A stretch of DNA of 50,675 nt from Jimgerdemannia flammicorona (lineage: Eukaryota): the NCBI GenBank assembly GCA_003990765.1, contig RBNJ01000027.1, positions 1 to 50,675 of the forward strand, written 5' to 3'. Positions 7,187-42,975 of this stretch are shown one piece after another. The translations under genes and the position numbers were made by a program. Under the pieces are notes generated by a model. The model had not been told where the DNA came from, ran no database searches, and was given only the letters and a program-made list of their open reading frames with translations. Position 1 is the stretch's first letter. Every line of letters starts with the position of its first letter.

Positions 7187-7718
7187 TGTAAGAGGGTTGC
7201 TTTTTAAGATAACTATTACATAGTTCTGGAAGAGTTTTCTGGAAGTTCTGGATATTCTGGAAGACCATTTTCTTATGGTCAAGATCAATTTCATATAGAG
7301 TATGTTCTCTACACTTATTGATTTCAAGTTCGGGTTGATGTCTCAACCAAAGTCCTTTTTTCAGACTAGTTCTAGATATTCAGGATTTTCTGTATTTCAG
7401 GAAGTTTAAGAAACTAAGACCAGCTTAGTTGAATTGGCATATCACTGCAGACAATACCCAATTAGGAAATTTCGTGATGAGGTTAGGAGTGAGACCTAAT
7501 AGGGAGCAGATTTACTTAAGAGTGATTTGTGGATTATTAAATAGGTTTATTTGCTATTCATGATATTGCTATACTAGGAGTAGTTGTGTGAAGGGATATT
7601 GTGGGGAAGTGCTCAGGAGTTGTGTTTGGATTGTTCAAGTGTTCAAGTCTGAGATTCTGAGGTCTGGGGGAGGGGGTATTTATACTAGTGAGGAGCTATC
7701 TGGACTATGCTGAATATA
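7187..7718 (-). mobile_element. Family-1 LTR fragment G (U5/R end of a 3' or solo LTR), interrupted by element F
   Basis: Begins tgtaagagggttgc at 7187 with no adjacent PBS, flanked by integrase sequence. Homology stops at 7718 just upstream of the TATA box. Confidence 0.85.
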
Positions 7719-9073: not shown

Positions 9074-10710
9074 ACCTATAAATAGCCTAGCAGTCATAGC
9101 ATAGTTAGATTAGCCTTATACGACATGACTGTAAACTGACTCAGTAGTCAGATGATCTCTTGATATGTCAGATCACACTTGTATTACGTAACTGCATTCT
9201 GACTCAGCAAGGCACTTAGTGCTACATCCATATTTAGCATAGTCCAGATAGCCCCTCACTAGTATAAATACCCCCTCCCCCAGACCTCAGAATCTCAGAC
9301 TTGAACATACAAGAACATTTCTGAATACTTTCCCACAATATCCCTTTATACAAATACTCCTAGTATAGTAATAGCATGAATAGTGAATAAATCTATTTAA
9401 TAACCCACAAACCACTCTTAAGTAAATCCACTCCCTATTAGGTCCCACTCCTAACCCCATCATGAAATATCCTAATTGGGTATTGTCTGCAGTGATATGC
9501 CAATTCAACTAAGCTGGTTTTAGTTTCTCAAACTTCCTGAAACACAGAAAATCCTGAATATCCAGAACTAGTCTGAAAAAGAACTTTGGTTGAGATGTCA
9601 ACCTGATCTTGAAATCAATAAGTGTAGAGGATGTACTCTATACAAAATTGATCTTGACTATAAGAAAATGGTCTTCCAGAATATCCAGAACTTCCAGAAA
9701 ACCCTCCCAGAACTATGTAATGATTACTCTAAAAAGCAACCCTCTTACAACTTGGTAGCAGTGGTTTACAATCTAATTCCACTTCAAGATGCTTCCTCAC
9801 CCTGCTACAAACCCCTCTGCAAATTTCTACAAGTTGGTATAAAGCCCAACCTCTGAACTGGAATTTATCCTGAACCATCTGATAATCTGAAGAGAATTGA
9901 ATCTGACATACAAGGACAATTTGACCTCTACACCTGCAACAAGTGGGACAAACTTCATTCAAAGAAAGAAGTACTCTGATTAAACCAGCAAATAGACGAA
10001 ACCCTATTTACCAAACTCCTTGCACTACACCCAGCAAGTCAAGATGAAGAAGGTCTTATTGAAGTCTTCTTTACTCTTCTTAACAAGAGTTTTGTCAGCT
10101 CTATAAATCTGAGCGACTTAGAACAACCAGCAGCAGTCTTTCTAGTCTTAGTTCCACATGAAGTCTAAGCCTCTATAGCTAAGTGGCTCAACTCTACTGA
10201 CTTTCACCATACCAGGACTAAGACTGCATTATACTACTGATTTCAGAACAGCAAGGCCTGCCATATTCTTAAAGAAGAAGTAAGAGAAACCCTTCATTAA
10301 CTATCTGACCCTGAACCTGAAGCAGGCCCTGCTATAGCCCTACCTGAATCTGAAACCAATACCGAACCTGAACTTGACTTTGAATTAAGTCCATCCAAAA
10401 TCAGATATACAACTGATTCCATCTACTTTGATGCTGAGTAAACCCAATTATACAGGGACCAAACTGAAGAAGAGGAGGAGTATCTCAGTGGATTTGATCC
10501 CAGATACACTACCGAAGGAGATGCACTTCCATCAGAACAGAACACACCTATATAATAATAAACAGCTATCTATTAAGCCCTTACTCCAGATCCACAACTA
10601 CTACTCCAGCACTTATACAGATCCAAAGAACTCTATCACACTCTGCACCAGTACTACAAGTAGTATCAGTAACACCACTACCAGCAGTCCAACCACTTCC
10701 AGTAAACAAC

Positions 10711-15076: not shown

Positions 15077-15950
15077 AGAGAATGACAGGCAAAGAAAAAC
15101 CCTCATCAAAGCACAACATGGTGGGTAGGGCCTGGTTCTCCCAGTCAAGATGAGTAAAGGACTTATATGTGAGACAGGAGGAAACCCCCAATACCCCACT
15201 TCTCAAGCCTGTGGGCCTCGATTACATTGTCATATCAGCTCCCAGTTCCAGTTGAGTGTAGCCAAGATGCCTGAAATAAGTAGCCTCAGGCCCCCTGACC
15301 CCCCCTGATGACTGGGGCCCAACCCTGCTGACCACCAAAAGAAGCCAAGAGTGACACCTACTACCTAACTGTGCTGTACCAATCAAAAGGCCCCACTGAA
15401 GCAGCACCTGCCCCAGTCCTAATGACCACCCCCAGCCTAGCACCCTACTGGTTCACCGTTATCACCCTTCCTCCTATCTGTAATGGCCATCTCTCCTCCC
15501 ATCCTGATAACACCTGAAAAGCAGTCACCTATGCCAGAACCATGCTTACCAGGAAGCTCACCAAAGCCAGAGAGCCCCACCACAGGCATCAAAGACCTAC
15601 AGGTAACCTATACTGAGCACTTAATACCCAAGGTTGGCCAACTCCCTACATAGCTTGAGACATACCAAGACACTACCTTATTGGTGATGGCAAAAGGAAG
15701 AAGGTGCTACACCAAAACAGATGCACTCCAGACACAGCCAAAGATATCAGAAACTACAAAAAAGTGGAGAAGACACCAATCTGACACCAATAAAGGGGCA
15801 ACTCAACACCATTGCCCTCCTCCCACCATGCTCATGTAGGCATAGCAAACCAACCCAAGGTAGAGGGGATAATAATAGGAGAAAGGGGACTTGGAAGATT
15901 GCCTACCAAACCTTGTGACTGGTAAGGTAGCAGAGAAAGGAGTGTGGCTA
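15077..15950. other. Unidentified ~870-bp segment between truncated elements F and E; right boundary approximate
   Basis: No similarity to family 1 or E. More GC-rich but CpG-depleted. Decayed Pro-rich + strand frame (MPEISSLRPPDPP**LGPNPAD...). Confidence 0.4.
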
Positions 15951-18227
15951 CTTATAGCTTTAGTGACTTCTTGTACTATGCAGATGAAATAGGTGTTTCC
16001 CTTTTTTCGAGAGAGTCTCTTCATTTGAATAGTAGAGATGATTTTGATTCCTTGGTAATTGGTATCTTTCTAGAATATCAGAGTGATCTTTCTGCCTTCA
16101 TGGGTCAGGTTAACCTCATTGGTTCTCCAGTTGATATCTGGGTTATACTGGGTCAACCAGGCTTTTTCTAAGATAATATCTTATCCTGAGAGATCTATAA
16201 TGCTGAAGTCTAACTTCTCTTGATATTTGTCAATCTTGAGCAAGAGATCTTTGCAGATCTTGGTCAGTGGTGCAGTTTTACTATCACTAAAGGTAACATT
16301 TCTTTTCTCAGTAACTGGTCTGCTTCGGGCTCTAATCCTCTTGGTGGTCTTGGTGCTGATATAGTTTCCAGTAGTACCACTATCAAGCAAGACATTGATA
16401 TTCTGTCTGTGAACTTAGCCTGTGAACTTGATACAACTGTCCTCCATTTTGATAGTATTGAGCTCTTCATCCTCATTGTTGTCCCAATTGCTGTCAGTCT
16501 CCTCGAAGTCAGTTTCTCCCCATCCTTCACAAGAAGGATTGTCTTGTTTGGGTTCCTCAGTCTATTGGGTCTGATGCTTCTTGGACTAAATTTTGAAAAC
16601 TTTGGAGAGGCATACATGGCATTTACCAACATATTCCATACAGTACATTCAAATAGAATGAGGGCATCATCCACATGGTGCATAACCATCTACAATTCTC
16701 TTATACCAGTTTTCATCATCTTCTTTCATATGTAGTAGTGACCTTTTGACTAGGAGGTTTGTTGGTAGATCCAAACCCTTTCTTGCCACAGTCTGTCTGG
16801 GAGAGTTCAGGGACTTCTTCAATGGTGAGATCTTGATGGATTTCTTCAATGATCACTTGGATAATTCTTTGGCCTATTTTGACTTCAAATGATGTATCTT
16901 CAAAATTTTGCAAAATGATACAAATTTTACCTATAAATCTTTGGTCAACTACTCCTCCTTTTAGCCCAATATTGAACTCTTTGACTAGACTGCTTTGCTC
17001 AGCAAGGCAGATATATGTTCCTTTGGGAGCCTGCATTGCAATTTCTGTTCATACTGTAGCATTGATACTTGGTGGAATGGTGAGGTCTTGACTGCTGTAG
17101 AGATCATATCCAGTATCAGTTAGATGGGCCTTAGTGGAGATAGTAGCCTTGTACCATATCTTCTGTACTTTGATGACATTCTCAGGGTTCTTCTTCTCTG
17201 AACCTTCTCCAATAACAGTAATGTTCTGATTACTGGGTTTATCTGATCTGTTTCTCTTCTCAGGGCATTTAACAGATATGTGTCCTGTCTTCTTGCAGAT
17301 GAAGCACAATCTCTTTTCACAGAGCTGCTTCTTTTCATCCTCATTAGAAGGTCTGGGTCCTCTGGGGTTTTGCTAGTTCCTTTGATCATATCTTTGATCA
17401 TATCTTTGGTCATTTCTCCTGGTAGGATTTCTCCTATCTTGGTTATCCTTCTTGTGTTCTTGATTTCATAGAGCTTGTGCAGTAAGAATTTTGCAGGCTC
17501 TTCTTTGTACTTGGGCAAAGCACTATGAGTAGTGGGGACATCCTTGAGGAAGACCTTATTCCTTGATCTTCTGGGTGAGCTAGTCTGGTAGGGCTGCAAA
17601 GAGATGGTTGGCTCTGGTACCATTGATGGCCAAGTTGTTCTCCTGGTAGGTAAGTCTAACAGTTTTAAGATAGGCATCTATTCTGGTGGCAAAGGTCTCT
17701 AGATCCTCTTCACCATTCTTGTGAAACTTTATCTGGGACAGTTTGTTCCAGATTTCTTGTATGTAGGCCACATCTTGGAATTTGGTCAGTAGCAAGGCCT
17801 TGAGTCCTGAACCTGCTTCATAGTCATCCCAACCTGGTCTATTGTTGGCCAGTACTTGTCCATTGACTTGAGAGCAGGCTTCCCAGGTTACTGAGTGTTG
17901 TTCCAAGGTTCACCAGAATTCAGCTGCTGTTTCAGTGAAGAATGTGGCTACTGTTTCTACTTATGCTGCTGATGTGGCAAACAGTTGTTGAAGGGTACTA
18001 TTCTGGTTGTTGGTGAGCATTCCTATAGGCACTCAGTTGTCATTCCATTAGTTTGCTTGATAGCCTGTGTCAACTATATTGATGAAGTTTTCAATATTAC
18101 TGTTTTTTCCACTAAATATTAGAATTTGCAAGGTCTTGGTTGGTTTGTTCTGTTCAGCAATCTGTCCTACTATCTCTGCTAGTGCTGCTAGCTGGATAGT
18201 TAGTACTGTAATGTTGGCATCTACCAT
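15950..18227 (-). pseudogene. gag-dUTPase-protease of element E
   Basis: MVDANIT... gag start, NGTRANHLFAALPD (cf. family-1 NGTRADHLFDALPE), knuckle CFICKKTGHISVKC, dUTPase TGYDLYS / GGVVDQRFIG / CGKKGFGST, protease LDSGTTGNYIS. Confidence 0.88.
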
Positions 18228-19117
18228 TGTGTTGACTATTGGTGGTGGGCCTATTGGGGTAGATTCTCCTGAAGATTGTTCTGCTTAGTGGAGTTGTGGT
18301 GCTGTATGACTTGGGGTTACTTAATTCCTGAATATCAAGTCAAAGAGTCTTGTAAGGGAGGGTAAACCAAACCTCTGTATAGGTGGCTGGGTTGGTTCTG
18401 GGGTCTGTTCTTCTTGACCTGTGGTTCCTTGGTAAATTCCTAGGCCTGCTGTTCCTTATTGGCTATCGTCAGACTGGTAACCTGTAGAGTCTTCATCTGA
18501 CTCCCTTTCCTGATAAGATAGTGCATCCTCATACTGACTAGGTCCTTCAAAGAGGATATCAGTCTCTGGCTGGGTAGATGGGCCTACTTCTTGTTCAGCA
18601 GTAGGGGATGGTTAGCCTGCTTACTCATTCTCGTACCTAGTTATGGCAGAGGTGTAGTATACAACTAGCCTGTAGTAGAGGGAGGTCTTAGTTGGAGTAT
18701 GGTGATATCTGTCAGAGGCAATCTACTCAGCAGCTGCTTCCTTTACAGCAGGGGGTGTGATATAATCTAGAAAATCCTGGGTAGCTGCAGCAGTAGATTC
18801 TGGAGTCTTAGTGATTCCAATGTATTCTTGGAGGAGTTTGTAGAATCTATGGCAGCTAACAATATTCCTAAGTCCTGGGTGGTATGTTCTAAAGGCCTAG
18901 TATAGGTTCTTGTAAGTCTGGTCAATTATAAGCTAGTGGGTTCTTGGGTCTGAGGTTTCCTGGTACCACCTGGTCCTAATAGCAAGGGCTTCTCTGGCTC
19001 TGGTTTGAGGATCTACAGTTGGTTCTAGGGGTTACTCCTGTCCAAGGTTGGTCTTGTTCCAACTTCAGAAGTATGTTCTTTGGTACCTTCTTGACTGGTA
19101 AACTGCTGCTACTAAGT

Positions 19118-19901
19118 TGTAATAACTCTCACTTCTACCTCTCTCTTATCCTTTGGATAATTAGGGAAGTGGACTATTACTTAGGGACTTAGTACACAAT
19201 GTATACCAAGAAGCCTTCAGTTTGAGGAAGTACCCACTTGTAAGTAGTTGTAGTGGTAGTATCTTCTGTTTCAAAGATCTTTCTCTGGTGGTCTATTTTG
19301 AGAGTCTTGTTCTTTGCTGTGCACAGACTGAATTCATCTTAGAATTCAGATTCAATGGGTTTACTTAAGTCTTTGGGGATTTATATACTGGTCTCAGTTC
19401 TGGCAGAAGTTAGCTAGACTTCTGAAGTTTAGTCAGAAACACTAGAGTCACTTAGGTGTCATTACTAAGACTCAGGGGAATGTGTGTGTAGGGGGGACTT
19501 GATTCTTATATCAAGGACTGAACTAAAACTGCTTTATTTTGAATGGAAACTGAGGGGTATTTATATAAGTTGGTCTGCGATTTCTGACTAAGTATGAGTG
19601 ACTAATTTGGTAACTATAATGAGGTTTGTGATCATGACCTTTGTCAGGTAGTTTTTGGCAAAAAACAACTTTGTGATTAGGACCTCAATTACTAGACAAT
19701 GATTAGCTGCTGTAGCAACAGTTGCTGCAGTACTGATTATTGGGGATAAGCTGGATATCATTTTTTGCATCATTTCACATTATTCATCATTCATAATTTA
19801 TATATTGTACTTCACTCATATGATGATGTCATCGCTGCCAGGTCACATGATCACTCATCTCATTGGTCCCATCTGATCACTTGCTTATTCATTCTATTAC
19901 A
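19118..19901 (-). repeat. Family-2 5' LTR (784 bp) with TATAAATACCCC box at ~19554-19565
   Basis: 7-bp terminal inverted repeat and adjacent PBS. The TATA context is identical to family 1. Only one copy in the window. Confidence 0.8.
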
Positions 19902-29012: not shown

Positions 29013-30097
29013 GTTGTTTGCTGGAGGCGGTTGGACTGCTGGTAATAGTGTTACTGGTACTACTTGAGGTACTGGTGCAGAGTGTGATGGGGTTCTTTGG
29101 GTCTGTGTAAGTTGCTGGAGTAGTAGTTATAGATCTGGAGTAAGGGCTTGATAGATAGCTATTTGTTGTTGTGTAGGTGTATTCTGTCCTGATGGGAGTG
29201 CATCTCCTTCGGTAGTATATCCAGGATCGAATTCAGTGAGATACTCCTCCTCCTCTTCAGTTTGGTCTCTGTGTAATTGGGTTTGCTCGGCATCGAAGTA
29301 GATGGAATCAGTTGTATATCTGATTTCGGAGAGACTTAATTCAAAGTCAAATTCAGGTTTAGTATTGGTTTCAGATCCAGGTAGGGCTATAGCAGGGCCT
29401 GCTTCAGATTCAGGGTTAGGTAGTTGATGAAGAGTTTCTCTTGCTTCTTTTTTAAGAATATGGTGGGCCTTACTGTTCTGGAATCGGTAGTATAATGCGG
29501 TCTTGGTCCTGGTATGGTGAAAGCCAGTAGAGTTGAGCCACTTGGCTACAGAGGCTTGGGCTTCATGAGGAACTAAGGCTAGGAAGACTGCTGCTGGTTG
29601 TCCTAGGTCGCTCGGATTTGTAGAGCTGACAAAACTCTTGTTGAGAAGAGTAACGAAGGCTTCAATAAGACCTTCTTCATCTTGACTTGCTGGGTATAGT
29701 GCAAGGAGTTCGGTGAATAGGGTTTCACCTATTTGCTGGTTTAACCGAAGTACTTCTTTCTTTAAATGAAGTTTATCCCACTTGTTGCAGGTGTGGAGGT
29801 CAAATTGTTCTTTTACATCAGATTCAATTCTCTCCAGATTGTCAGATGGTTCAGGATAAATTCCAGTTCAGAGGTTGGACTTTATACCAACTTGTAGGAA
29901 TTCTCAGAAGGGTTTGTAGCGAGGTGAGGAAGCATCTTGAAGTGGAATTGGATTGGAAACCGCTGCTACCAAGTTGTAAGATGGTTGCTTTTTAGGGTAA
30001 CCATTATATAGTTCTGGAATGTAAGCACACAACCTCCAAGCCACTGAAATTACACGCGACCTCTGAACAAATCTGGAAATCACCTGCTTGATCATGA

Positions 30098-30237
30098 AGC
30101 TGAGTCAAACCGAAGTCACAGTGTACAAAGCTGAGTCAAACCGAAGTCATAGCACACAAAGCTGAGTCAATACGAAGTCACGGAACACAAGATTTATACA
30201 AACGGAATCTTACCAATCAGGACCAAATGCATATATA
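30098..30237 (+). promoter_or_regulatory. Upstream U3 promoter-like module: 3 x 31-bp repeats each with TGAGTCA, then CCAAT and TATATA
   Basis: TGAGTCA at 30101, 30132 and 30163; CCAAT 30213; TATATA 30232; about 70 bp before the U3 ORF start. Function is inferred. Confidence 0.5.
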
Positions 30238-30306
30238 CTGAGCACCAAGATGCATCGAATCAGAGAACCAAAACAAACAACAACTACAACTTCCAAATAC
30301 ACAAAT

Positions 30307-31400
30307 ATAACCACTGAGATCTACAACTACATCCGTGCTGACATTTGGAATGCCATCATCAACCGAGCTACACCCCCTCTGCCCCTCATGAATATCCACA
30401 GCCTAGCACCCCTCTACTTCATGGAAGCCCGATGGAATGCTCTGAACATGCTTAGTGAGGCCCACTGAATTGGACAAATCTCAAGCTACTACCAGATCGG
30501 CCGCCTCCTGGAAGACATGGTCGAACACCATCACGATATGGACATTACCCAGATGTCTCAACACCAGAAGCTCATCACCTGCAAACATCGAGAACTCTTC
30601 TATGAGTACAGCACCTTTATTCCCCACCTCTGAATCACTACCAGCGAAATGGTTACTACCCTGTCCTATGGCCAAATCGATGACATGATACAAGAACTCA
30701 ACTACAAGTACCTCGAATATGTCCAGACCACAGACAGAACCTTCCCACACCCTGATGACCATATCCTGCAAATGCCTCAAGTCGGATACGCCATGAAGGA
30801 TGTCTACGATATAATCCACTTCAACGAAGATGAAGCAGAAGACAATGATCCCTCTGATGCCAACATGACCTCAAGCCAAAGATCTCTGCCAACCCTGATC
30901 ACACCACCAACCTTGCCAATAAACTTACAACAGTTTATAACCGCATACGAGACTTATTGGGATAACGACTACTAGCATGAATACCAACCTGCATTCACCC
31001 CTGATTACTTCAACTATAATGAAGAGACCGGAGAACACAACCTATACCTCCAGACAACCCTTGAGATTGAACCAACCACTCCACCACCTGAGTACGAGCA
31101 ATATGAACCACAGCTGCCAGCTTACTACAATCCTGCAACTCATAGTACTATAATCTATAGAAGGTATGCAGTGAATCTGATGAAAGTGAAGACAATACAC
31201 CCATCCTTCGCCCACCAACACCTTATCCAGCCTACAAGACAGACAATGCTATCCTGTGGGATGGAGATGAAGTCCCAATATATTACTATCTCAGCGAACA
31301 AGGAGAAGTAATCCATGAATTACTCTTCCTAGATGACTACTTTATCAGAGATGATGTCATTGATGGTGATGTCATCGAAGACTCCCCAGACAGCGCCTAA
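30307..31400 (+). pseudogene. U3-encoded LTR ORF, copy in A 5' LTR
   Basis: Start mutated to ATA; 4-bp deletion near 31170; fragments 30250..30468 and 30649..30975. Confidence 0.72.
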
Positions 31401-31589
31401 ACCTATAAATAGCCTAGCAGTCATAGTATAGTTAGATTAGCTTTGTATGACATAACTGTGAACTGACTCAGCAGTCAGACAATCTCTTGACATGTCAGAT
31501 CACACTTGTACTATGTGACTGCATTCCGACTCAGCAAGGCACTTAGTGCTACATCCATATTCAGCATAGTCCAGATAGCCCCTCACTAG

Positions 31590-31597
31590 TATAAATA
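31590..31597 (+). promoter_or_regulatory. Main LTR TATA box (TATAAATA), putative U3/R promoter
   Basis: ctagTATAAATAcccc is conserved in all family-1 LTRs, with AATAAA ~120 bp downstream (31713) and TGACTCA upstream (31464). Confidence 0.7.
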
Positions 31598-32079
31598 CCC
31601 CCTCCCCCAGACCTCAGAATCTCAGACTCAAACACACAAGAACATTCCTGAATACTTCCCCACAATATCTCTTCACACAACTACTCCTAGTATAGCAATA
31701 TCATAAATAGCAAATAAACCTATTCCATAACCTACAAACCACTCTTAAGTAAATCTGCTCTCTGTTAGGTCCCATTTCTAACCCCATCACGAAATTTCCT
31801 AATTGGGTATTGTCTGCAGCGATACGCCAATTCAACTAAGCTGGTCTTAGTTTCTTGAACTTTCTGAAATATGGAAAATCCTGAACATCCAGAACCAGTC
31901 CAAAAAAGGACTTTGGTTGAGACGTCAACCTGATATTGAAATCAATAAGCATAGAGGACATACTCTATATGAAATTGATCTTGACCATAAGAAAACGGTC
32001 TTCCAGAACATCCAGAATATCTAGAAAACCTTTCCAGAACTACGTAATGGTTACCCTAAAAAGTAACCCTCTTACAACT

Positions 32080-32089
32080 TGGTAGCAGC
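32080..32089 (+). promoter_or_regulatory. Primer-binding site TGGTAGCAGC, initiator-tRNA-Met-like
   Basis: 3 nt after the LTR end; complementary to a ...GCUGCUACCA tRNA 3' end. The tRNA identity is inferred. Confidence 0.75.
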
Positions 32090-33041
32090 AGTTTACAATC
32101 CAATTCTGCTTCAAGACGCTTCCTCACCCTGCTACAAACCCTTCTGCAAATTCCTACAAGTTGGTATAAAGCCCAACCTCTGAACTGGAATTTATCTGAA
32201 CCATCTGACAATCTGGAGAGAATTGAACCTGACATACAAGGACAATTTGACCTCCACACCTGCAACAAGTGGGACAAACTTCATTCCAAGAAAGAAATAC
32301 TCCAGTTAAATCAGCAAATAGGTGAAACCCTATTCACCGAACTCCTTGCACTACACCCAGCAAGTCAAGATGAAGAAGATCTTATTGAAGTCTTCCTTAC
32401 TCTTCTCAATAAGAGTTTTGTCTGCTCCATAAATCCGAGCAATCTAGGACAACCAGCAGCAGTCTTTCTAGCCTTAGTTTCTCACAAAGCCCAAGCCTCT
32501 GTAGCCAAGTGGCTCAACTCTACCGACTTTCACTGCACCAGGACCAAGACCACCTTATACTACCGATTCCAGAACAGCAAGATCTGCTATATCCTTAAAG
32601 AAGAAGCAAGAGAAACCCTTCATCAACTACCTGACCCTAAACCTGAAGCAGGCTCTGCTACAGCCCTACCTGAATCTGAAACCAATACCAAACCTGAACT
32701 TGACTTTGAATTAAGTCCATCTGAAATCAGATATATAACTGATTCTATCTACTTTGACGCTGAGAAAACCCAATTACACGAGGACCAAACCGAAGAAGAG
32801 GAGGAGTATCTCACTGAATTTGATCCTGGATATACCACTGAAGGAGACACACATCCATCAGGACAGAATACACCTATACAGCAACAAACAGCTATCTATC
32901 AAGCCCTCACTCCAGATCCACAACTATGTACTACTCCAGCAACTTACACAGACCCAAAGAACCCCATCACACTTTGCACCAGTACCTCAAGTAGTACCAG
33001 TAACACCACTACCAGCAGTCCAACCACCTCCAGCAATCAAC

Positions 33042-36000
33042 ATGGTGAACCAACAGATTCTCGATCTTACAGTCCAAGTAGCTATAATGGCAGCAACTAT
33101 CACTGCCTTAGCTGAACAGACCCGACCTACCAAAAATCTGAGCCTACCTACCTTCAATGGCACTGCACAAGAAGTCCAAAGCTTTATTAGTGTAGTTGAC
33201 ACCAACTTCGAAGCCAATCAATGGACTAATGAGCGAGTTGCTGACCATGTTCTGACAAACAATCAAGACCACACCCTGGAACAACTCTTTGCTACCACTA
33301 CAGCCTATGTCCGCTGAGTTGTTACATTCTTCCGAGGACCTGCCAAAGAATGGTGGTGAACCCTTCCTGAAAAACCCCTCACATGGGACACCCGACCTGC
33401 AGTAGTTGCTCAGAATGTAGCAAACAATGCCCCAGGATATAGAGCCCATCCTGCAGCCCCTGGACTCAAACAACTCATGATTGCTCAATATCGCAGCAAA
33501 TCCATGATTGCTGAATCTCGAGTAAAACTCTGCAACCTCAAATTTAATGTACATGGCAAAGAAGAATTCGAAACCTTCTGTACAAAACTCGAGTCACTTC
33601 TGAACACTGTTGGCCTAGGATACATCGCCAATGATGAAGCATGAAATAGTACAAGAGCAGACCACTTATTCAATGCCCTGCCTGAATGGCTTACTAGAAA
33701 AATCTGAGAATAAGGCTGCCCGGTTGGTTGTGATCACCAACAAGCCTGGCAAGAATCAAGACCATGGTCAAGCAAATCCTAACAGCTGGACCAATTCTGT
33801 CCTGAAGACAATTCAATAACAAGGAAAGGACTTGGACCAAGAAAGAAGAACCCAAGCATGAAGCATCCCGAGCTCCTTCCACATCCACCTCTTGGACACC
33901 CAGAAATCCTGAACCCACCCAGCCCAGTACCTTCAAGAAACTTACTGAAGGCGAAAGGAATGAACTTCGAAGAAGTGGAGCATGTTTCTATTGCCAAAAG
34001 ACAGGACATATGGCCAGTGCCTGCCCAAACCGAAAACCCTGAACAACAATATGAGCAACTGTTACCACTCTTCACCACCTCAACAACCTGACTACAAGAA
34101 CACTAGACTTTGTTAAGTTAAGACAAACTGCTAAGGCCCCAACCAAAGGAAGTCAAAAAGCAGCCGGATATGACCTGTATGCAGCCGAAGAAGCTACAGT
34201 TTCTAACCGAGAAGTCAAACAAGTCTATACAGGAATCAGCATCCAAATTCCCGAAGGACATGTTGGAAGAATATGCTGTCACAGCAGCCTAGCATTGAAA
34301 GGACTCTCAGTAGAAGGAGGAGTCATTGACGAAGATTACACAGGCAAAATCATTGTCCTCATTTGAAACCACAGTTGGACACCCTTCAAGATCCCTATTG
34401 GTTTCTGCATTACTCAGATCTTATTCAAAAAAATCGAGTCAACCCTGACAGTTAAGGAAGTCCCTGAACTACTACCCACCATCCGAGGATCTAAAGGATT
34501 TGGCTCATCAAACAAAGCCCCAGCCCAACCTATCATAAGCAAAGAAGAACAATTCTACAAGAAGATCGAAGATGAATATGTACCAAGTGGCCGATGCCCT
34601 CATGGTATTGGAATGTACTCTTCCCGAATGATTGATGATTGCTTCTCTTATCAACAAACTGGCTCAAAGAAGAACCAACAGAAGAAAGGCTCCTACAACT
34701 GAAATCACCACCATTGGATCAGACAAACTGCTCACCCTTAAAGCTTTTGTCAATGGAGCACCTGTCAAGATTATGATAGACAGTGGTGCCTCAGGCAACT
34801 TCATCAATGAAGAGACAGCCAACAGACTCAAGGTCTTTACCTCTCCAGTACAGCAAACTCAAGCAGTTGCTACAGCTGATGGAACCTCACATGTTATTAG
34901 CAAAGAAGTCTGCAATCTACCCTTCCGAATTGGTGACTACCAAGTACATATTACTCTCCAAATCGTACCACTTCCTGACAATGAAATCATTCTTGGGACT
35001 CCATGGTTAAAACAAGAGAACCCCATGATCGATTGGGTAAACCACTCTCTGACCATCAAGAAAGGATGCCACAACTTCAAACTACAAGGCGAAAAGGACC
35101 CACTCCATTCTAATGACCCTGGACCAAAGATCACCCACATCAACAAGCTACAACTCAAGAAATTGGCCAAGAAATATCCTCTCTTCACTATCTCCATCTG
35201 TCCATCCAAAGGAGAACCCGAGAATTCTGAAGAAGATTTTTCCAAAGTTGACAGCCATGTCAGACCACTACTCCAGAAATTCCGAGACATATTCCCAAAG
35301 AAGCTCCCGAAAGGCCTACCTTCCAAATGAGCAGTAGACCATGCTATCAAGACTATCCCAGATGCCAAACCAGCCTTTAAGTCAATCTACCACATGTCTC
35401 TGAGAGAAATTGATGTACTCAAGAAGGAAATCGATGAACTCCTAGAATAAGGATTCATCAGACCCAGTGTATCACCCTATGGTGCACCAGTCCTCTTTGT
35501 TGTCAAGAAAGGAGGAGACCTATGAATATGCATTGACTACCACGATCTCAATGAACAGACCATCAAGAACTGTTGCCCACTACCCAGAATCAATGAAATA
35601 TTCGATAGGCTCACCAACCCACAATTCATGAGCTCTTTTGACCTGCGAAACGGTTACTGGCAAATTGCCATGAAAGAAGAAGACATCTACAAGACAGCTT
35701 TCCAAACATGCTATAGACACTTTGAGTTCCTGGTTATGCCCTTTGGCTTAACTAATGCTCCAGCAATCTTCCAGACACTGATGAATACCATTCTGTATCC
35801 ATACCTGGACAAATTCATTGTTGTCTATATTGATGACATCCTAGTCTTCAGCAAAACCCTGGAGGAACATCTTGAACACCTTGAACTAGTACTACTGAAA
35901 CTCCGAGAAAACCAACTCTTTGCAAAACTCAGCAAGTGCAAATTTCTCCTGAAAGAAATTCAATTCCTTGGACACATTGTCACTCCGAATGGAATCAAAG

Positions 36001-38168
36001 TGGACCCCAGCAAAATCTCTGCAATCAAGGATTGGCCCAGACCCAAGAAGCTGAAAGACCTCCAGTCATTTCTGGGACTAGCAAACTATTATAGGTGATT
36101 TGTTGCCAACTTTGCTAAAATCGCTACTGCCCTCACCCAAATGACCAAGCATAGCAAGAAACAAGAACAACCTTGGACCATGAAACAAGAGAATGACTTC
36201 AACAATCTTGTAAATTAGGGACCCAAACAAGATACCGCCTTCCAAGCACTGAAAGATACTCTGATAACCACACCAGTACTTCAAGCGGCAAACCCTGCCC
36301 TACTATATAAAGTCACCACTGATACCTCTGACCTAGCTCTTGGAGCAGTGCTCATGCAAGAAGGACACCCAGTGGCCTATCACTCCCACAAGTTCAATGA
36401 TGCCAAAATCAACTATGCAACTCACGAGAAGGAAATGCTAGCCATCGTAGACACTCTGATCAAATGGCAACCATATCTAGAAGGAGCATACTTCACTATA
36501 TTGACTGACCACAAGTCATTAGTCAACATCAAGACACAGGCTACTCTTTCCCGAAAGCAAGCCAGATGGATGAAAGTTCTCACCAACTTTGACTATGAAA
36601 TTCAGTACCACCCTAGCAAGGAAAATATTGTTGCCAATGCAATCTTCAGACCACCAATCAAAGAGATTATCCAAACTCTGACCTTGGTTACCAACACTAT
36701 CATAGAACAAATCATCACAGCATGTATTGATGATAAAGAAGCTCAAGCACTCTGAGAAATCCTGAACAATAATGATGCTGACAAGTATACCCAGTACAAT
36801 CAATACTAACTCAAGGACAATGCTATCTACTATAAGGACAGACTGTATGTTCCAAACAACCGAGACCTCCGAAGGACTATCCTATTCAAATATCATGATG
36901 CCCCTATAGCTGGACATTTAGGATTCGATAAATATTATGAAGTTATCTCCCGAAACTTCTATTAGTCCTGCATGGCAGATCAGCTCAAAACCTACATCAC
37001 TTCCTGTGATGCCTGCCAATGAAACAAGTCCTCAACACTAGCAAAACCTGGCTTACTCCACCCTATTCTAGTACCATCTGCAAATTGGGAACAAATCTCT
37101 ATGGACTTCATTGTACAACTACTCCGAACCAAGAATGGAAAAGATGCAATTGTTGTCTTTATGGACTATCTCAGCAAACAAGCCCACTTTGTGCCTACTA
37201 CCACTACTGCAACAGCACCAGACATAGCCACACTCTTATTTGACAACATCTTCCACCATCATGGTCTTCCTAAGATCATTATTAGTGACCGAGATCCGAA
37301 GTTCACCAGCCATTTTTGGAAAGCCCTCCATGCACACCTTGGAACGAAACTTGTACTATCCACAGTCTTTCACCCTGAAACTGATGGCCAAACCGAAAGA
37401 ATGAACCGAACTCTGGAACAAATGCTAAGGAACTATGTCTCCTACAGATAAGATGATTGGCATGAACATCTCACCGCAGTCGAGTTTGCCTATAACAACA
37501 GCAAGCAAGCCTCTCTTGGAATGATCCCATTCTTCACTAATACTGGACAAAACCCAAACACCTCTTTGACACTTATCCGAACTACCGATGAACCCTCCAC
37601 AGTCGAAGCTGTTGAAGAATTCCTACTTCGAATGCGCAATCTAAGCCAGATTGCAATTGAGAATTTATCACGAGCCCAAGAACAACAGTTACAGTATGTT
37701 AACCAATACTGCCGAGAAGAAACTTTTGATATTGGAGAAAAAGTCCTACTAGACATCAGAGGATACCAAGTTGACAACCTCAAGCACAGACCATCCACAA
37801 AGCTGAACAGTAAGTTCATTGGACCATTTGAAGTCATTGCACAAGTCTCTCCAACCTCCTACAAACTGGTGCTACCAGACACTATTAAGATTCACCCAGT
37901 TTTTAATGTTCAACGTCTCAAGTGATACAATGACAATGATGACAAGCTATTTCCAAATCGGACCACCAAACCACCTGCACCTGTCATTATTAATGACCAA
38001 GAAGAGTATGAAGTTGAACAAATCCTCAACAAACATGGCAACAATAACCATTCTGAGTATCTTGTCAAATGGAAAGGTTACCTGATCTATGATGTAACCT
38101 GGGAACCCAAGACCAATCTCCAGAATGCTACCGATCTAGTTCAGAAATATGATTCCTTGAATAACTAG
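33042..38168 (+). pseudogene. gag-dUTPase-PR-RT-RH-INT-chromodomain polyprotein of element A
   Basis: Knuckle CFYCQKTGHMASAC 33983-34024; dUTPase ~34105-34510; DSGA 34779; YIDD 35826; RNase H ~36310-36650; integrase ~36890-37560; GPF motif; chromodomain ~38000-38160. Stops and two small deletions. Confidence 0.94.
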
Positions 38169-38593: not shown

Positions 38594-40652
38594 TGTAAGC
38601 ACACAACCTCCAAGCCACCGAAATTACACATGACCTCTGAACAAATCTGGAAATCACCTGCTTGATCACGAAGCTGAGTCAAACCAAAGTCACAGCACAT
38701 AAAGCTGAGTCAAACCGAAGTCACAGCGCACAAAGCTAAGTCAATACAAAGTCACGGAACACAAGATTTACACAAACAGAATCTTACCAATCAGGACCAA
38801 ATACATATATACTGAGCACCGAGACGCGTTGAATCAGAGAACCAAAACAAACAACAACCACAACTTCCAAACACACAAATATGACCACTGAGATCTATAA
38901 CTGCATCTGTGCTGACATTTGAAATGCCATCATCAACTGAGCTACACCCCCTCTGCCCCTCATGAATATCCACAGCCTAGCACCCCTCTACTTCGTGGAA
39001 GCCTGATGGAATGCTCTGAACATGCTTAGTGAGGCCCACCAAATCAGACAAATCTCAAGCTACTACCAGATTAACCGCCTCCTGGAAGACATGGTCGAAC
39101 ACCATCATGATACAGACATTACCCAGATGTCTCAATACCAGAAGCTCATCGCCTGCAAACATCGAGAACTCTTCTATGAGTATAGTACCTTTATTCCCCG
39201 CCTCCGAGTCACTACCAGCAAAATGGTTGCTACCCTATCCTATGGCCAAATCGATGACATGATACAAGAACTTAACTACAAGTACCTCAAATATGTCCAG
39301 ACCACAGACAGAACCTTCCCACACCTGATGACCATATCCTGCAAATGCCTCAAGTCGGATACACCATGAAGAATGTCTATGATATAATCCACTTCGATGA
39401 AGATGAAGCAGAAGACAATGATCCCTCCAATACTGATATGACCTCAAGCCAAGGATCTCTGCCAACTCTGATCACACTGCCAACCTTGCCGATGAACTTA
39501 CAACAGTTCATAACCACATACGAGACTTATTGGGATAACGACCACTAGCATGAATACCAACCTGTATTCACCCCCAATTACTTCAACTACAATGAAGAGA
39601 CTGGAGAACACAACCTGTACCTCCAGACAACCCTCGAGATTGAACCAACCACTCCACCACCTGAGTACGAGTGACATGAACCACAGCCACCAGTTTACTA
39701 CAATCCTGCAACTCATAGTGCTATAACTTATAGAAGGTATGCAGACAGTAAATCCGATGAAAGCAAAGACAATACACCCATCCTTCACCCACCAATACCT
39801 TATCCAGCCTACGAGACAGACAATGCTATTTTGTGGGATGGAGATGAAGTCCCAATGTATTACTACCTCAGCGAACAAGGAGAAGTAATCTGTGAACCAC
39901 TCTTCCTAGATGACTACTTTATCAGAGATGATGTCATTGATGGTGATGTCATCAAAGACTACCCAGACAGTGCCTAAACCCATAAATAGCCTAGCAGTCA
40001 TAGTATAGTTAGATTAGCTTTGTACGACATGACTGTGAACTGACTCAGCAGTCAGACAATCTCTTGATATATCAGATCACACTTGTACTACGTGACTGCA
40101 TTCCAACTCAGCAAGGCACTTAGTGCTACATCCATATTCAGCATAGTCTAGATAGCCCCTCACTAGTATAAATACCCCCTCCCCCAGACCTCAGAATCTC
40201 AGACTCAAACACACAAGAACATTCCTGAATACTTCCCCACAATATCCCTTCACATAACTACTCCTAGTATAGCAATATCATGAATAGCAAATAAACCTAT
40301 TCCATAACCCACAAACCACTCTTAAGTAAATCTGCTCTCTGTTAGGTCCTATTCCTAACTCCATTACAAAATTTCCTAATTGGGTATTGTCTGCAGTGAT
40401 ACGCCAATTCAACTAAGCTGGTCTTAGTTTCTTAAACTTCCTGAAATACGGAAAATTCTGAACATCCAGAATCAGTCCAAAAAAGGACTTTGGTTGAGAC
40501 ATCAACCTGATCTTAAAATCAATAAGCATAGAGGACGTACTCCATATGAAATTGATCTTGACCATAAGAAAACGGTCTTCCAGAACATCTAGAATATCTA
40601 GAAAACCTTTCCAGAACTATGTAACAGTCACCCTAAAAGTAACCCTCTTACA
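38594..40652 (+). repeat. 3' LTR of element A (2059 bp)
   Basis: Follows the PPT; ends ctcttaca followed by the TSD. Confidence 0.96.
38881..39977 (+). pseudogene. U3-encoded LTR ORF, copy in A 3' LTR
   Basis: ATG 38881 to TAA 39977 = 1097 nt (1-bp deletion near 39325); fragments 39022..39369 and 39345..39548. Confidence 0.72.
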
Positions 40653-41279
40653 TGGAAAGGTTTTCTGGATATTCTGGAAGACTGTTTTCTTATGGTCAAG
40701 ATCAATTTTGTATGGAGTACGTCCTCTATACTTATTGATTTCAAGATCAGGTTGATATCTCAACCAAAGTCCTTTTTTGGGACTAGTTCTGGATGTTCAG
40801 AATTTCTATATTTCAGGAAGTTCAAGAAACTAAGACTAGCTTAGTTGAATCAGTGTATTGCTGCAAACAATACTCAATTAGAAAATTTTGTGATGGGGTT
40901 AGGAGTAGGACCTAACAGGGAGTAGATTTACTTAAGGGTGGTTTGTGGGTTATTTGAATGGGTTTATTCACTATTCATGATATTACTATACTAGGAGTAG
41001 TTGTGTGAAGGGATATTGTAGGGAAGTATTCAGGAATATTCTTGTATGTTCAAGTCTGAGATTCTGAGGTCTGGGGGAGGGGGTATTTATACTAGTGAGA
41101 GGCTATCTGGACTATGCTGAATATAGATATAGTACTAAGTGCTTTGCTGAGTTGGAATGTAGTCACGTAGTATAAGTGTGATCTGACATATCAAGAGATC
41201 ATCTGACTGCCGAGTCAGTTTACAGTCATGTCATACAAGACTACTCTAACTATACTATGACTGCTAGGCTATTTGTGGT

Positions 41280-42377
41280 TTAGGTACTGTCTGGGTAGTC
41301 CTCAATGATATCACCATCGATTGTATCATCTCTGATGAAGTAGTCATCTAGGAAAAGTGGTTTGCGAATTACTTCTCCTTGTTTGCTAAGGTAATAATAC
41401 ATTGGAACTTTATCTCTGTCCCACAAGATGGCATCATCTGTCTCATATGCTGGATAAGATATTGGTGGTCGAAGGAGGAGTGCATCATCTTTACTTTCAT
41501 TGGTTTCACTATCTGCATACCTTCTATAGGTTACGGCACTATGAGTCATGGGGTTGTAGTAGGCTGGTGGCTGTGGTTCATGTTGCTTGTACTCGGGTAG
41601 TGGAGTGGTTGGTTCAATCTCAAGGGTTGTTTGGAGGTACAGATTGTGTTCTCCAGTCTCTTCATTATAGTTGAAGTAATCGGGGGTGAATGTGGGTTGG
41701 TATTCATACCAGTGGTCATTGTCTCAATAAGTCTCGTAGGCTGTTATGAATTATTGTAAGTTCATTGGCAAGGTTGGTGGTGTGATCAGGGTTGGCAGAG
41801 ATCCTTGGCTAGAGGTCATGTCAGCATCAGAGAGATCATTGTCTTCTGCTTCATCTTCATCGAAGTGGATTATATTGTAGATGTCCTTCATGACATATCC
41901 AACTTGGGGCATTTGTAGGATATGATCATTGGGGTGTGGGAAGGTTCTGTCTGTAGTTTCAATATACTTGAGATACTTGTGGTTGAGTTCTTGTATCATA
42001 TCATCAATTTGGCCATAGGACAGGGTAGCAATCATTTTGGCTGTAGTAACTTGGAGGCAGAGAATAATGGTACTGTACTCATAGAAGAGTTCTCGATGTT
42101 TGTAGGTGATGAGCTTCTGGTGTTGGGACATCTGAGTAATGTCTGTATTGTGGTAGTGTTCGATCATATCTTCCAGGAGGCGGCCGATCTGGTAGTAGCT
42201 TGAGATTTGTCCGATTTGGTGGGCCTCGCTAAGCATGTTCAGAACATTCCATCGGGCTTCCACGAAGTAGAGGGGTACTAGGCTATGGATATTCATGAGG
42301 GGCAGAGGGGGTGTGGCTCTATTGACAATGGCATTCCTAATGTCAGCGCAGATATGGGTATAGATCTCGGTGGTCAT
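41280..42377 (-). pseudogene. U3-encoded LTR ORF, copy in B 5' LTR
   Basis: 1098-nt span; ORFs 41751..42482 (243 aa) and 41280..41549 are in the same frame. Confidence 0.8.
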
Positions 42378-42665
42378 GTTTGTATATTTGGAAGTTATGG
42401 TTGTTGTTTGTTTTGGTTCTCTGATTCGATATGTCTCAGTGCTTGGTATATATGTATTTGATCTTGATTGGTAAGATTCCATTTATGTAAATCTTGTGTT
42501 CTGTGACTTCATATTGACTCAGCTTTGTATGCTGTGACTTTGGTTTAACTCAGCTTCATGATCAAGCAGGTGATTTCTAGATTTGTTCAGAGGTTGTATG
42601 TGATTTTAGTGGCTTGTTCAGAGGATGATGTGTAATTTCTGTGGCTTGGAGATTGTGTGCTTACA

Positions 42666-42975
42666 GTAGGTTACAATCTAATTTTGCTTCAAGATGCTTC
42701 CTCACCCCACTGCAAACCCCTCTGAGAATTCCTACAAGTTGGTATAAAGCCCAACCTCTGAACTGGAATTTATCCTGAACCATCTGACAATCTGGAGAGA
42801 ATTGAACCTGATGTACAAGGATAATTTGACCTCCACACCTGCAACAAGTGGAACAAACTTCATTCAAAGAAAGAAATACTCCAGTTAAATCAACAAATAG
42901 GCAAAACCCTATTCACTGAACTCCTTGCTCTATATCCAGCAAGTTAAGATGAAGAAGGTCTTATAAAAGTCTTCT
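42666..42975 (+). mobile_element. Family-1 element C, continuation of the leader; interrupted by element D
   Basis: gtagg-ttacaatc... resumes the sequence broken at 21614. Confidence 0.88.

Follow-up and report, generated by a model that had tools for sequence, protein, structure and literature searches.

The subject of this analysis is a decayed long terminal repeat (LTR) retrotransposon of Jimgerdemannia flammicorona and the reading frame that lies ahead of its gag gene. The DNA analysed, referred to below as the window, is a whole stretch of 50,675 nucleotides (assembly GCA_003990765.1, contig RBNJ01000027.1, positions 1–50,675, forward strand). Self-BLAST revealed in it a nest of decayed copies of one Ty3/gypsy chromovirus family (family 1), and the focal element, copy a of this family, was recognized by its two LTRs, which are 93% identical. 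Between the 5' LTR and gag, a frame of 285 codon columns (32184–33041) is open, lacks ATG and continues in phase into gag. The frame carries coding signatures, its protein sequence is conserved between two families of elements, and the leader that contains it is depleted of ATG. With about an even chance, we read this frame as a protein-coding N-terminal extension of Gag (and Gag-Pol) of at most 285 residues, which would be reached through a near-cognate start codon and leaky scanning. We infer from the sequence that living elements translate the frame, and likewise the start codon, the two isoforms and any function. All coordinates are collected in Table 1.

The open frame ahead of gag

The leader of family 1, from the end of the 5' LTR to the gag ATG, is present in the window in four full copies (a to d) and three partial ones (e to g), and the statements made here are copy-by-copy counts, with no consensus. 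Across 32184–33041, stop codons occur in the gag frame in 15 of the 285 columns. Thirteen of these are stops of a single copy, and the other two hold different stop codons in two copies, so that no gag-frame stop is common to the copies as the same codon. The other two frames of the same stretch have 12 and 27 majority stops, counting as such the stops carried by half of the copies or more. Between the frame and the gag ATG there is no stop in copies free of private damage. The longest open frames observed are 246 to 327 codons, compared with a mean of about 80 and a maximum of 194 codons in dinucleotide shuffles of the leader. The open frame is thus real and far beyond chance.

Several details given by an earlier, sequence-only reading of this DNA are borne out by these counts. 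It had described a frame with no conserved Met, and no in-frame ATG is found in any copy across the 285 columns. It had also placed the gag ATG exactly 963 nt from the LTR end in two copies; the distance is 962 nt in copies b and d, the same value with the LTR boundary placed one base earlier, whereas copies a and c have 965 and 961 nt. The private indels that it had mentioned are likewise present, copy a having lost 1 nt after 32195 and gained 4 nt at 32925–32928, and both differences were confirmed by contigs of public runs. Because of these two indels, copy a reads the frame only in pieces. The claim that the stops are explicable as decay carries no weight, because a single transition is enough to turn a sense codon into any of the stop codons and the argument therefore does not discriminate. 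The weight of the stop evidence lies in the privacy of the stops to single copies (seven of the nine in-frame stop columns of copy c after the common TGA are private to that copy).

The 5' limit of the frame had been set differently. The sequence-only reading had described a continuous frame of about 370 codons that starts in U5, crosses the primer-binding site (PBS) and is fused to gag. Its downstream part, 32184–33041, is upheld as coding and fused in frame by homology, composition, synonymous excess and ATG depletion. The continuous frame is not, because a TGA at 32181–32183, overlooked in that reading, is present in all six copies that cover the site and breaks the frame in every copy seen. 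Two details of U5 were described correctly: a 9-nt, in-frame deletion is seen in one LTR copy, and the frame is bounded by a TAG at 31896 in eight of the ten LTR copies, with CAG in its place only in the two LTRs of copy a. Coding of the U5 and PBS stretch found no support. Apart from this TAG, a TAA at 32064 occurs in three of nine LTR copies belonging to two elements (copy a, in both of its LTRs, and copy g). Permutation tests gave no synonymous excess for 31899–32076 (12 synonymous changes versus 13.1 expected, z −0.40) or for 32077–32180 (7 versus 9.2, z −0.90). The U5 parts and the first 45 or so codons after the PBS showed no similarity between families in any of nine frame pairs. Of the 110 gag-frame columns of 31851–32180, two have a majority stop, the TAG at 31896 being one, as against 5 and 13 in the other frames. 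Since the U5 and PBS stretch gives no coding signal, the supported coding frame was placed downstream of the TGA.

Coding signatures within family 1

The base composition of the leader varies with codon position. G makes up 0.295, 0.095 and 0.084 of positions 1, 2 and 3, and T makes up 0.151, 0.239 and 0.277. The corresponding values for G are 0.262, 0.171 and 0.100 in gag and 0.248, 0.114 and 0.115 in pol, so the codon-position composition of the leader matches that of the element's own gag and pol. Met is absent from the 285 and 290 residues of the extensions of families 1 and 2, compared with 23 in 1751 residues of Gag-Pol.

Codon-position substitution bias, which the sequence-only reading had named as a check, was assessed with a permutation test in which the same base changes were reassigned among sites of the same base, each variable column being counted once, over 2000 permutations. 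In the gag frame of the leader (32184–33039), 71 changes are synonymous as against 57.8 ± 6.2 under the null (z 2.13; reached in 38 of 2000 permutations). The +1 frame has 60 versus 73.8 ± 6.7 (z −2.07), and the +2 frame has 51 versus 57.7 ± 6.1 (z −1.09). The check therefore gave an excess that is specific to the gag frame and modest. As controls, gag has 71 synonymous changes versus 50.0 ± 5.6 (z 3.77) and pol has 298 versus 205.0 ± 11.0 (z 8.42). Within the family, the synonymous signal of the leader amounts to a weak constraint on the residue sequence.

Nei–Gojobori omega values were also calculated (0.35–0.41 for the leader, 0.20–0.44 for gag, 0.18–0.24 for pol and 0.31–0.70 for U5). These were set aside because a strong transition bias lowers omega without selection, and the permutation tests were used instead.

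Conservation between two families

A tblastn search of the window with the leader protein gave a distant match at 18845–18297 on the minus strand, through which a second, diverged chromovirus was found (family 2). It is present as a single copy and contains a PBS-like sequence as in family 1, a dUTPase-like stretch and a gag with a CCHC motif. Its leader is also in phase with its gag ATG, which stands in the same context as that of family 1, A at −3 and G at +4. The family 2 leader contains four ATGs, all of them in frame +1 and none in the gag frame.

The leaders of the two families have only one strong nucleotide similarity, a 23-nt match at the PBS. At the protein level, BLASTP of leader against leader gave 45.1 bits (E 4e-10 as a single comparison), with 56 of 201 residues identical (28%), and tblastx found significant similarity in the two gag frames only. 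The local alignment score of the gag frame pair was 137, compared with 39.8 ± 5.7 for shuffles (z 17.1), whereas the other eight frame pairs gave z values from −1.8 to 1.2. Just upstream of the gag ATG, the residues PPP..N. align between the families. The two leaders give 267 aligned codon pairs. The residue is identical in 71 of them, and in 36 of the 71 it is specified by different codons, including Leu TTA/CTC, Arg CGA/AGG and Ser TCA or TCC/AGT. Between the families, nucleotide identity is 0.476, 0.494 and 0.356 at codon positions 1, 2 and 3. Because the similarity is confined to the gag frames and identical residues are specified through different codons, this one-frame conservation is taken to be the result of selection on the protein.

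Depletion of ATG

ATGs fixed in all copies number 0 in 333 positions of U5 and PBS, 1 in 853 of the leader, 17 in 1010 of gag and 41 in 3411 of pol, which makes them about ten times less frequent in the leader than in gag-pol. At 14 columns between 31851 and the gag ATG an ATG is seen in some copy, and 11 of these columns show ACG or ACA in other copies. A twelfth, 32047, does so once ten LTR copies are compared. These ACG and ACA counterparts are read as marks of CpG decay. Copy a has 5 ATGs, as against 15.1 ± 2.9 in dinucleotide shuffles (none of 300 was as low), and the ATGs of gag-pol number 107 versus 108.3 in shuffles. A codon-pair test of ATG avoidance (NAY|G) had only three pairs in the leader and gave a Fisher p of 0.12. 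A leader kept free of AUG in all frames would be what scanning to a distant start codon requires.

Proposed mechanism and alternatives

Leaky scanning appears to be the most likely route into the frame, because the frame has no ATG, the leader, which covers about 1.2 kb from 31851 onwards, has hardly any ATG in any frame, and the gag AUG is strong. A minority of scanning ribosomes would initiate a long Gag shortly past 32183, at a near-cognate codon, and the majority would scan on to the gag AUG in its strong context and make the normal Gag. One unspliced RNA would in this way give a rare long Gag and an abundant normal one. Two putative near-cognate start codons, a CTG at 32213 and an ATT at 32222, are listed in Table 1.

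Several results weigh against an extension that is made in this way. Within the family, the synonymous excess of the leader is modest (1.23-fold, compared with 1.42 in gag and 1.45 in pol), and variable sites are spread nearly evenly over the codon positions (58/55/67, compared with 186/115/300 in pol). All copies of family 1 are decayed and none is intact. Family 2 is represented by one copy, itself decayed, whose leader has 10 stops in the 297 codons of the gag frame, compared with 15 and 21 in the other two. Any near-cognate start is guesswork: in two of the six copies the CTG at 32213 has changed or has lost the G at +4, and no candidate was seen to align between the families. The ATG at 32370, the sole leader ATG that is present in all six copies, lies in frame +1 and would open an upstream open reading frame (ORF) of 20 codons. 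AlphaFold2, run with a six-row alignment, gave no confident fold (mean predicted local distance difference test, pLDDT, 37.3; predicted template modelling score 0.21), and a PDB profile search gave no real match, the best being a phage baseplate protein at E 0.078 that was judged a chance match. Structure prediction and profile search had both been proposed in the sequence-only reading, and neither lent support to the extension. No Pfam match was obtained at E 0.01, and only an 11-bit chance match at E 1. A search of the ESM Atlas with the extension returned no usable match. A search of 1.84 billion representative proteins gave no homologue of the extension; the two matches returned are internally repetitive proteins that share one short motif with it, and they were judged spurious.

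It is unlikely that splicing, rather than a non-AUG start, leads into the coding frame, either by joining an upstream exon that carries an AUG or by removing a small intron that includes the TGA, so that the frame continues from U5. An intron-like candidate does occur at 32160–32218, with a GTTGGT start, CTGAC 9 nt before the end and a terminal AG. It is 60 nt long in five of the six copies, in phase 0, starts at a codon boundary, is a multiple of three in copies without the private deletion, and holds the TGA. The interval 31899–32180 is also poor in majority gag-frame stops, by the count given above for 31851–32180, and an ORF of about 400 codons in U3 (described below) probably needs a spliced subgenomic RNA and therefore a splice donor somewhere in the leader. 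However, chance alone often produces GT...AG pairs of fitting length, the corresponding place in family 2 lacks such a motif, and no in-frame ATG is conserved upstream in family 1. Contigs of four public runs, whose RNA origin is unconfirmed, showed no joint here; in one contig 63 nt were skipped farther upstream, and in one 71 nt within the frame. The segments that such an intron would make coding are those with z values of −0.40 and −0.90 and no similarity between families. The same lack of signal bears on a start within U5 itself, with a frame that crosses the PBS as GAG does in Ty1 and a TGA that is read through or is a decay product of the subfamily. This is quite unlikely, although a passage of PMC4974528 provides the Ty1 precedent of a PBS inside the GAG ORF. 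The PBS has the same phase relative to the gag ATG in both families (N-L-V-A-A-V-Y), but such agreement has a one in three chance. Family 2 has an in-frame ATG in U5 at 19337, 73 codons before the codon boundary at the PBS, and a sense GGA aligned to the family 1 TGA; yet from that ATG to the PBS it has three stops versus 4 and 5 in the other frames, which is not distinctive. Since CpG-type sites elsewhere have decayed in four or five of six copies, parallel decay in all six is conceivable. The TGA in all six copies, the TAG at 31896 in eight of ten LTRs and the TAA at 32064 in three LTRs of two elements speak against a start in U5.

That the frame is now untranslated is less probable still. 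It would then be either a relic (a former Gag N-terminus, for example, or captured coding sequence) or an effect of base composition, and the depletion of ATG would serve scanning only. A long scanned 5' untranslated region would by itself give such depletion, and the frame has no start codon, homologue or confident fold. The weak constraint within the family and the nearly even spread of variable sites over codon positions also agree with a relic, as do the new stops, which are about as frequent in the gag frame as elsewhere (13 private stops, compared with 9 and 10 in the other frames). Such a stop rate is, however, expected of any gene in a dead copy, and gag and pol behave likewise. A relic would not keep similarity in one frame between leaders that can no longer be aligned as DNA beyond the PBS, nor identical residues encoded through different codons, including the six-fold switches of Ser, Leu and Arg, and the frame is in phase with gag in both families. 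Base composition alone gave shuffled frames well short of those observed.

Properties of the extension and searches for related sequences

The first half of the extension is helix-prone, and AlphaFold2 placed helices in the first 150 residues with very low confidence. The second half, which leads into the capsid domain, is acidic and in both families has a high content of Pro, Gln, Ser and Thr. No membrane-like segment was found in either family; the best Kyte–Doolittle mean over 19 residues was 0.97 in family 1 and 0.64 in family 2.

A homologue search with the extension joined to gag (stops as X) returned none within 345–1101 residues. Further copies were also sought outside the window. Metagenome contigs searched by protein gave 113 pattern matches and viral contigs gave four for the leader, none of which was confirmed in either set, and a DNA pattern around 32181 gave no match in public collections.

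Comparison with known systems

The mechanism proposed here is that of gammaretroviral glyco-Gag. According to PMC3042739, in murine leukaemia virus (MLV) an in-frame upstream CUG adds 88 residues to Gag to give glyco-Gag (gPr80gag). As in that system, an upstream frame without AUG is in phase with the gag AUG, and it would give a longer Gag beside the normal one from the same unspliced RNA. The extension of family 1 differs in length (up to 285 residues versus 88) and has no sequence similarity to that of MLV. The MLV extension has a signal anchor, whereas no signal or membrane segment is present here. The element is also a Ty3/gypsy chromovirus and not a retrovirus, and its start codon and two isoforms are predicted only.

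Ty1 of Saccharomyces cerevisiae belongs, unlike the chromovirus described here, to the copia superfamily. Its Gag starts at an AUG in the LTR, and family 1 has no AUG. The PBS can lie inside the GAG ORF of Ty1, according to part of PMC4974528; in family 1 the frame that crosses the PBS is closed by the TGA in all copies and has no coding signature.

Extra coding sequence between the 5' LTR and gag on the genomic RNA has been reported in other Ty3/gypsy elements. A section of one preprint (bioRxiv 10.1101/2025.03.14.642691) describes, for the Drosophila MDG1 group (412, mdg1), two ORFs located ahead of gag, sORF1 (about 110 residues) and sORF2 (about 70 residues), and a section of PMC7264820 describes additional ORFs (aORFs) upstream or downstream of gag-pol in plant LTR retrotransposons. 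These ORFs have their own AUG and stop, whereas the frame of family 1 has no ATG and runs into gag without a stop, and it showed no sequence similarity to any protein searched. A literature search, judged by titles and abstracts, found no retrotransposon with an N-terminally extended Gag from a non-AUG start.

Retroviral Gag has a matrix domain and a proline-rich linker (MA-p12) ahead of the capsid. The extended Gag of family 1 would resemble this arrangement, with a helix-prone and possibly folded N-terminal part, an acidic proline-rich linker, the capsid and a CCHC knuckle. The resemblance is one of layout only, with no sequence or structural match in the AlphaFold2 model or the PDB profile search. 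From this layout, a matrix-like or regulatory N-terminal module is a guess.

The element and other features of the window

Pfam searches of family 1 pol gave, in order, dUTPase (1.9e-21), aspartyl protease families, RVT_1 (9.2e-33), rve (1.4e-08) and Chromo (6.6e-15), and a zf-CCHC knuckle was found in gag. The chromodomain sits at the C-terminus of the integrase, and the chromovirus domain order and the two-LTR layout are both present. In copy b, gag through chromodomain form a single frame, with 39 scattered stops in 2097 codons counted from just before the PBS. Because of this domain order and the one-frame reading from gag to chromodomain, the focal element is classed by its sequence as a Ty3/gypsy chromovirus whose Pol begins with a dUTPase. 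Part of PMC2864245 describes fungal chromoviruses with dUTPase. The named relatives found in a search with the reverse transcriptase (RT) were plant and charophyte chromoviruses (best 44–63% identity). A 537-residue protein from a 3.6-kb contig, which carries dUTPase, protease and RT families, was 94% identical to the RT query; the same element family therefore also exists outside the window, in one or more public data sets. Soil metagenome contigs, from the four public runs, contained many related copies.

Table 1. Coordinates of the elements, leader copies and sequence features in the window.
Feature	Position	Strand	Remarks
5' LTR of copy a	30020..32076	+	About 2057 bp; self-BLAST
3' LTR of copy a	38594..40652	+	Self-BLAST
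TATA-like motif, TATAAATA then CCCC	31590..31597	+	Likely core promoter; read from sequence
AATAAA	31713–31718	+	U3/R/U5 borders inferred
In-frame TAG	31896..31898	+	8 of 10 LTR copies; CAG in the other two, both of copy a
PBS-like sequence, TGGTAGCAGCAG...	32080..32097	+	3 nt past LTR end
In-frame TGA	32181..32183	+	6 of 6 copies covering the site; upstream bound of the supported coding frame
ATG-free frame in phase with gag, 285 codon columns	32184..33041 (858 nt)	+	Alignment-based codon columns
Candidate near-cognate CTG (CUG)	32213	+	In frame; A at −3, G at +4; intact in 4 of 6 copies
Candidate near-cognate ATT (AUU), region 32213..32224	32222	+	In frame; A at −3, G at +4 in 6 of 6 copies
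Conventional gag ATG	33042..33044	+	A at −3, G at +4; 5 of 5 copies covering the site
gag (CCHC), dUTPase, protease, RT, integrase, chromodomain	33042..38168	+	Pfam; copy a with private indels
Leader, copy a	32077–33041	+	Full
Leader, copy b	30019–29013	−	Full; without private indels; 246-codon open stretch 29130–29867 used as search query
Leader, copy c	9750–10710	+	Full, 961 nt; 1-nt deletion
Leader, copy d	4234–3273	−	Full, 962 nt; 6 private in-frame stops after the common TGA
Leader, copy e	1035–577	−	Partial; 117 codons open after the TGA
Leader, copy f	42664–42974	+	Partial fragment
Leader, copy g	50675–50569	−	Partial
Family 2, diverged chromovirus, single copy	15077–19898	−	LTR cut at 19898 by a family 1 LTR
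Family 2 leader	18228..19118	−	891 nt, 297 codons; in phase with gag ATG 18227–18225
Family 2 in-frame U5 ATG	19335..19337	−	73 codons upstream of the PBS codon boundary

The PBS-like stretch reads N-L-V-A-A-V-Y in the gag frame of both families, and TGGTAGCAGCAG is common to both; a tRNA scan of the window returned no genes for comparison. The TATAAATACCCC motif of the TATA-like region is found also in the family 2 LTR (19565–19554, minus strand). A four-codon upstream ORF (M-N-S-K-stop) at 31703–31717 on the plus strand overlaps the AATAAA, and most LTR copies have its ATG. M-N-S also begins the reading from the in-frame ATG in U5 of family 2 (19337).

A frame of about 400 codons occupies U3 of the focal 5' LTR (30166–31400, plus strand) and ends at a TAA (31398–31400) just ahead of a TATA-like motif given at 31404–31411. 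Its best-kept copy lies at 41280–42482 on the minus strand. Over nine LTR copies it has three majority stops, compared with 16 and 36 in the other frames. The first ATG is present in one copy only, with Thr in the others, and the start may lie upstream of the LTR. No Pfam match was found for this frame. Retroviral nef and sag are accessory genes carried in U3, and the U3 frame looks like an accessory gene of this kind.

The focal element sits in a minus-strand copy of family 1, almost exactly at the LTR/PBS border of the latter. The internal part of that copy stops at 30019 and its LTR resumes at 40663 (junctions 30019/30020 and 40652/40663). Further abutting LTR junctions occur in the window at 7187/7718, 21612/21613 and 42974/42975. 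Such junctions suggest repeated insertion at, or recombination between, LTR ends.

Differences between the copies of family 1 are mostly C-to-T and G-to-A, for example at 31922, 32116, 32484, 32757 and 32847. At many sites CG in one copy corresponds to TG or CA in others, which amounts to heavy CpG-type decay, and copy c has many CAA-to-TAA changes. The pattern points to cytosine methylation or a process like repeat-induced point mutation acting on repeats.

Implications

If the frame is translated, Gag of these elements would be almost twice as long as ATG-based annotation indicates. Gene callers that need an ATG would miss such an extension systematically, in keeping with the lack of a match among 1.84 billion representative proteins. 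The leader also provides a signature that can be searched for in the leaders of other LTR retrotransposons, namely one open frame, depletion of ATG in three frames, and similarity between families in one frame only.

More broadly, and with somewhat less than an even chance, this clade of chromoviruses, as represented by the two families, may make two Gag isoforms, a rare one of which would be longer by about 285 residues and start at a non-AUG codon, in a leader kept poor in AUG by selection. This would be a glyco-Gag-like arrangement outside the retroviruses, with an additional N-terminal domain, outside all known families, that is possibly a matrix-like targeting module or a regulator of the element itself. 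Targeting, assembly control, copy-number control and defence evasion are possible roles of the extra domain. If true, the glyco-Gag principle, in which an upstream non-AUG start gives a second Gag isoform, would extend from gammaretroviruses to Ty3/gypsy elements.

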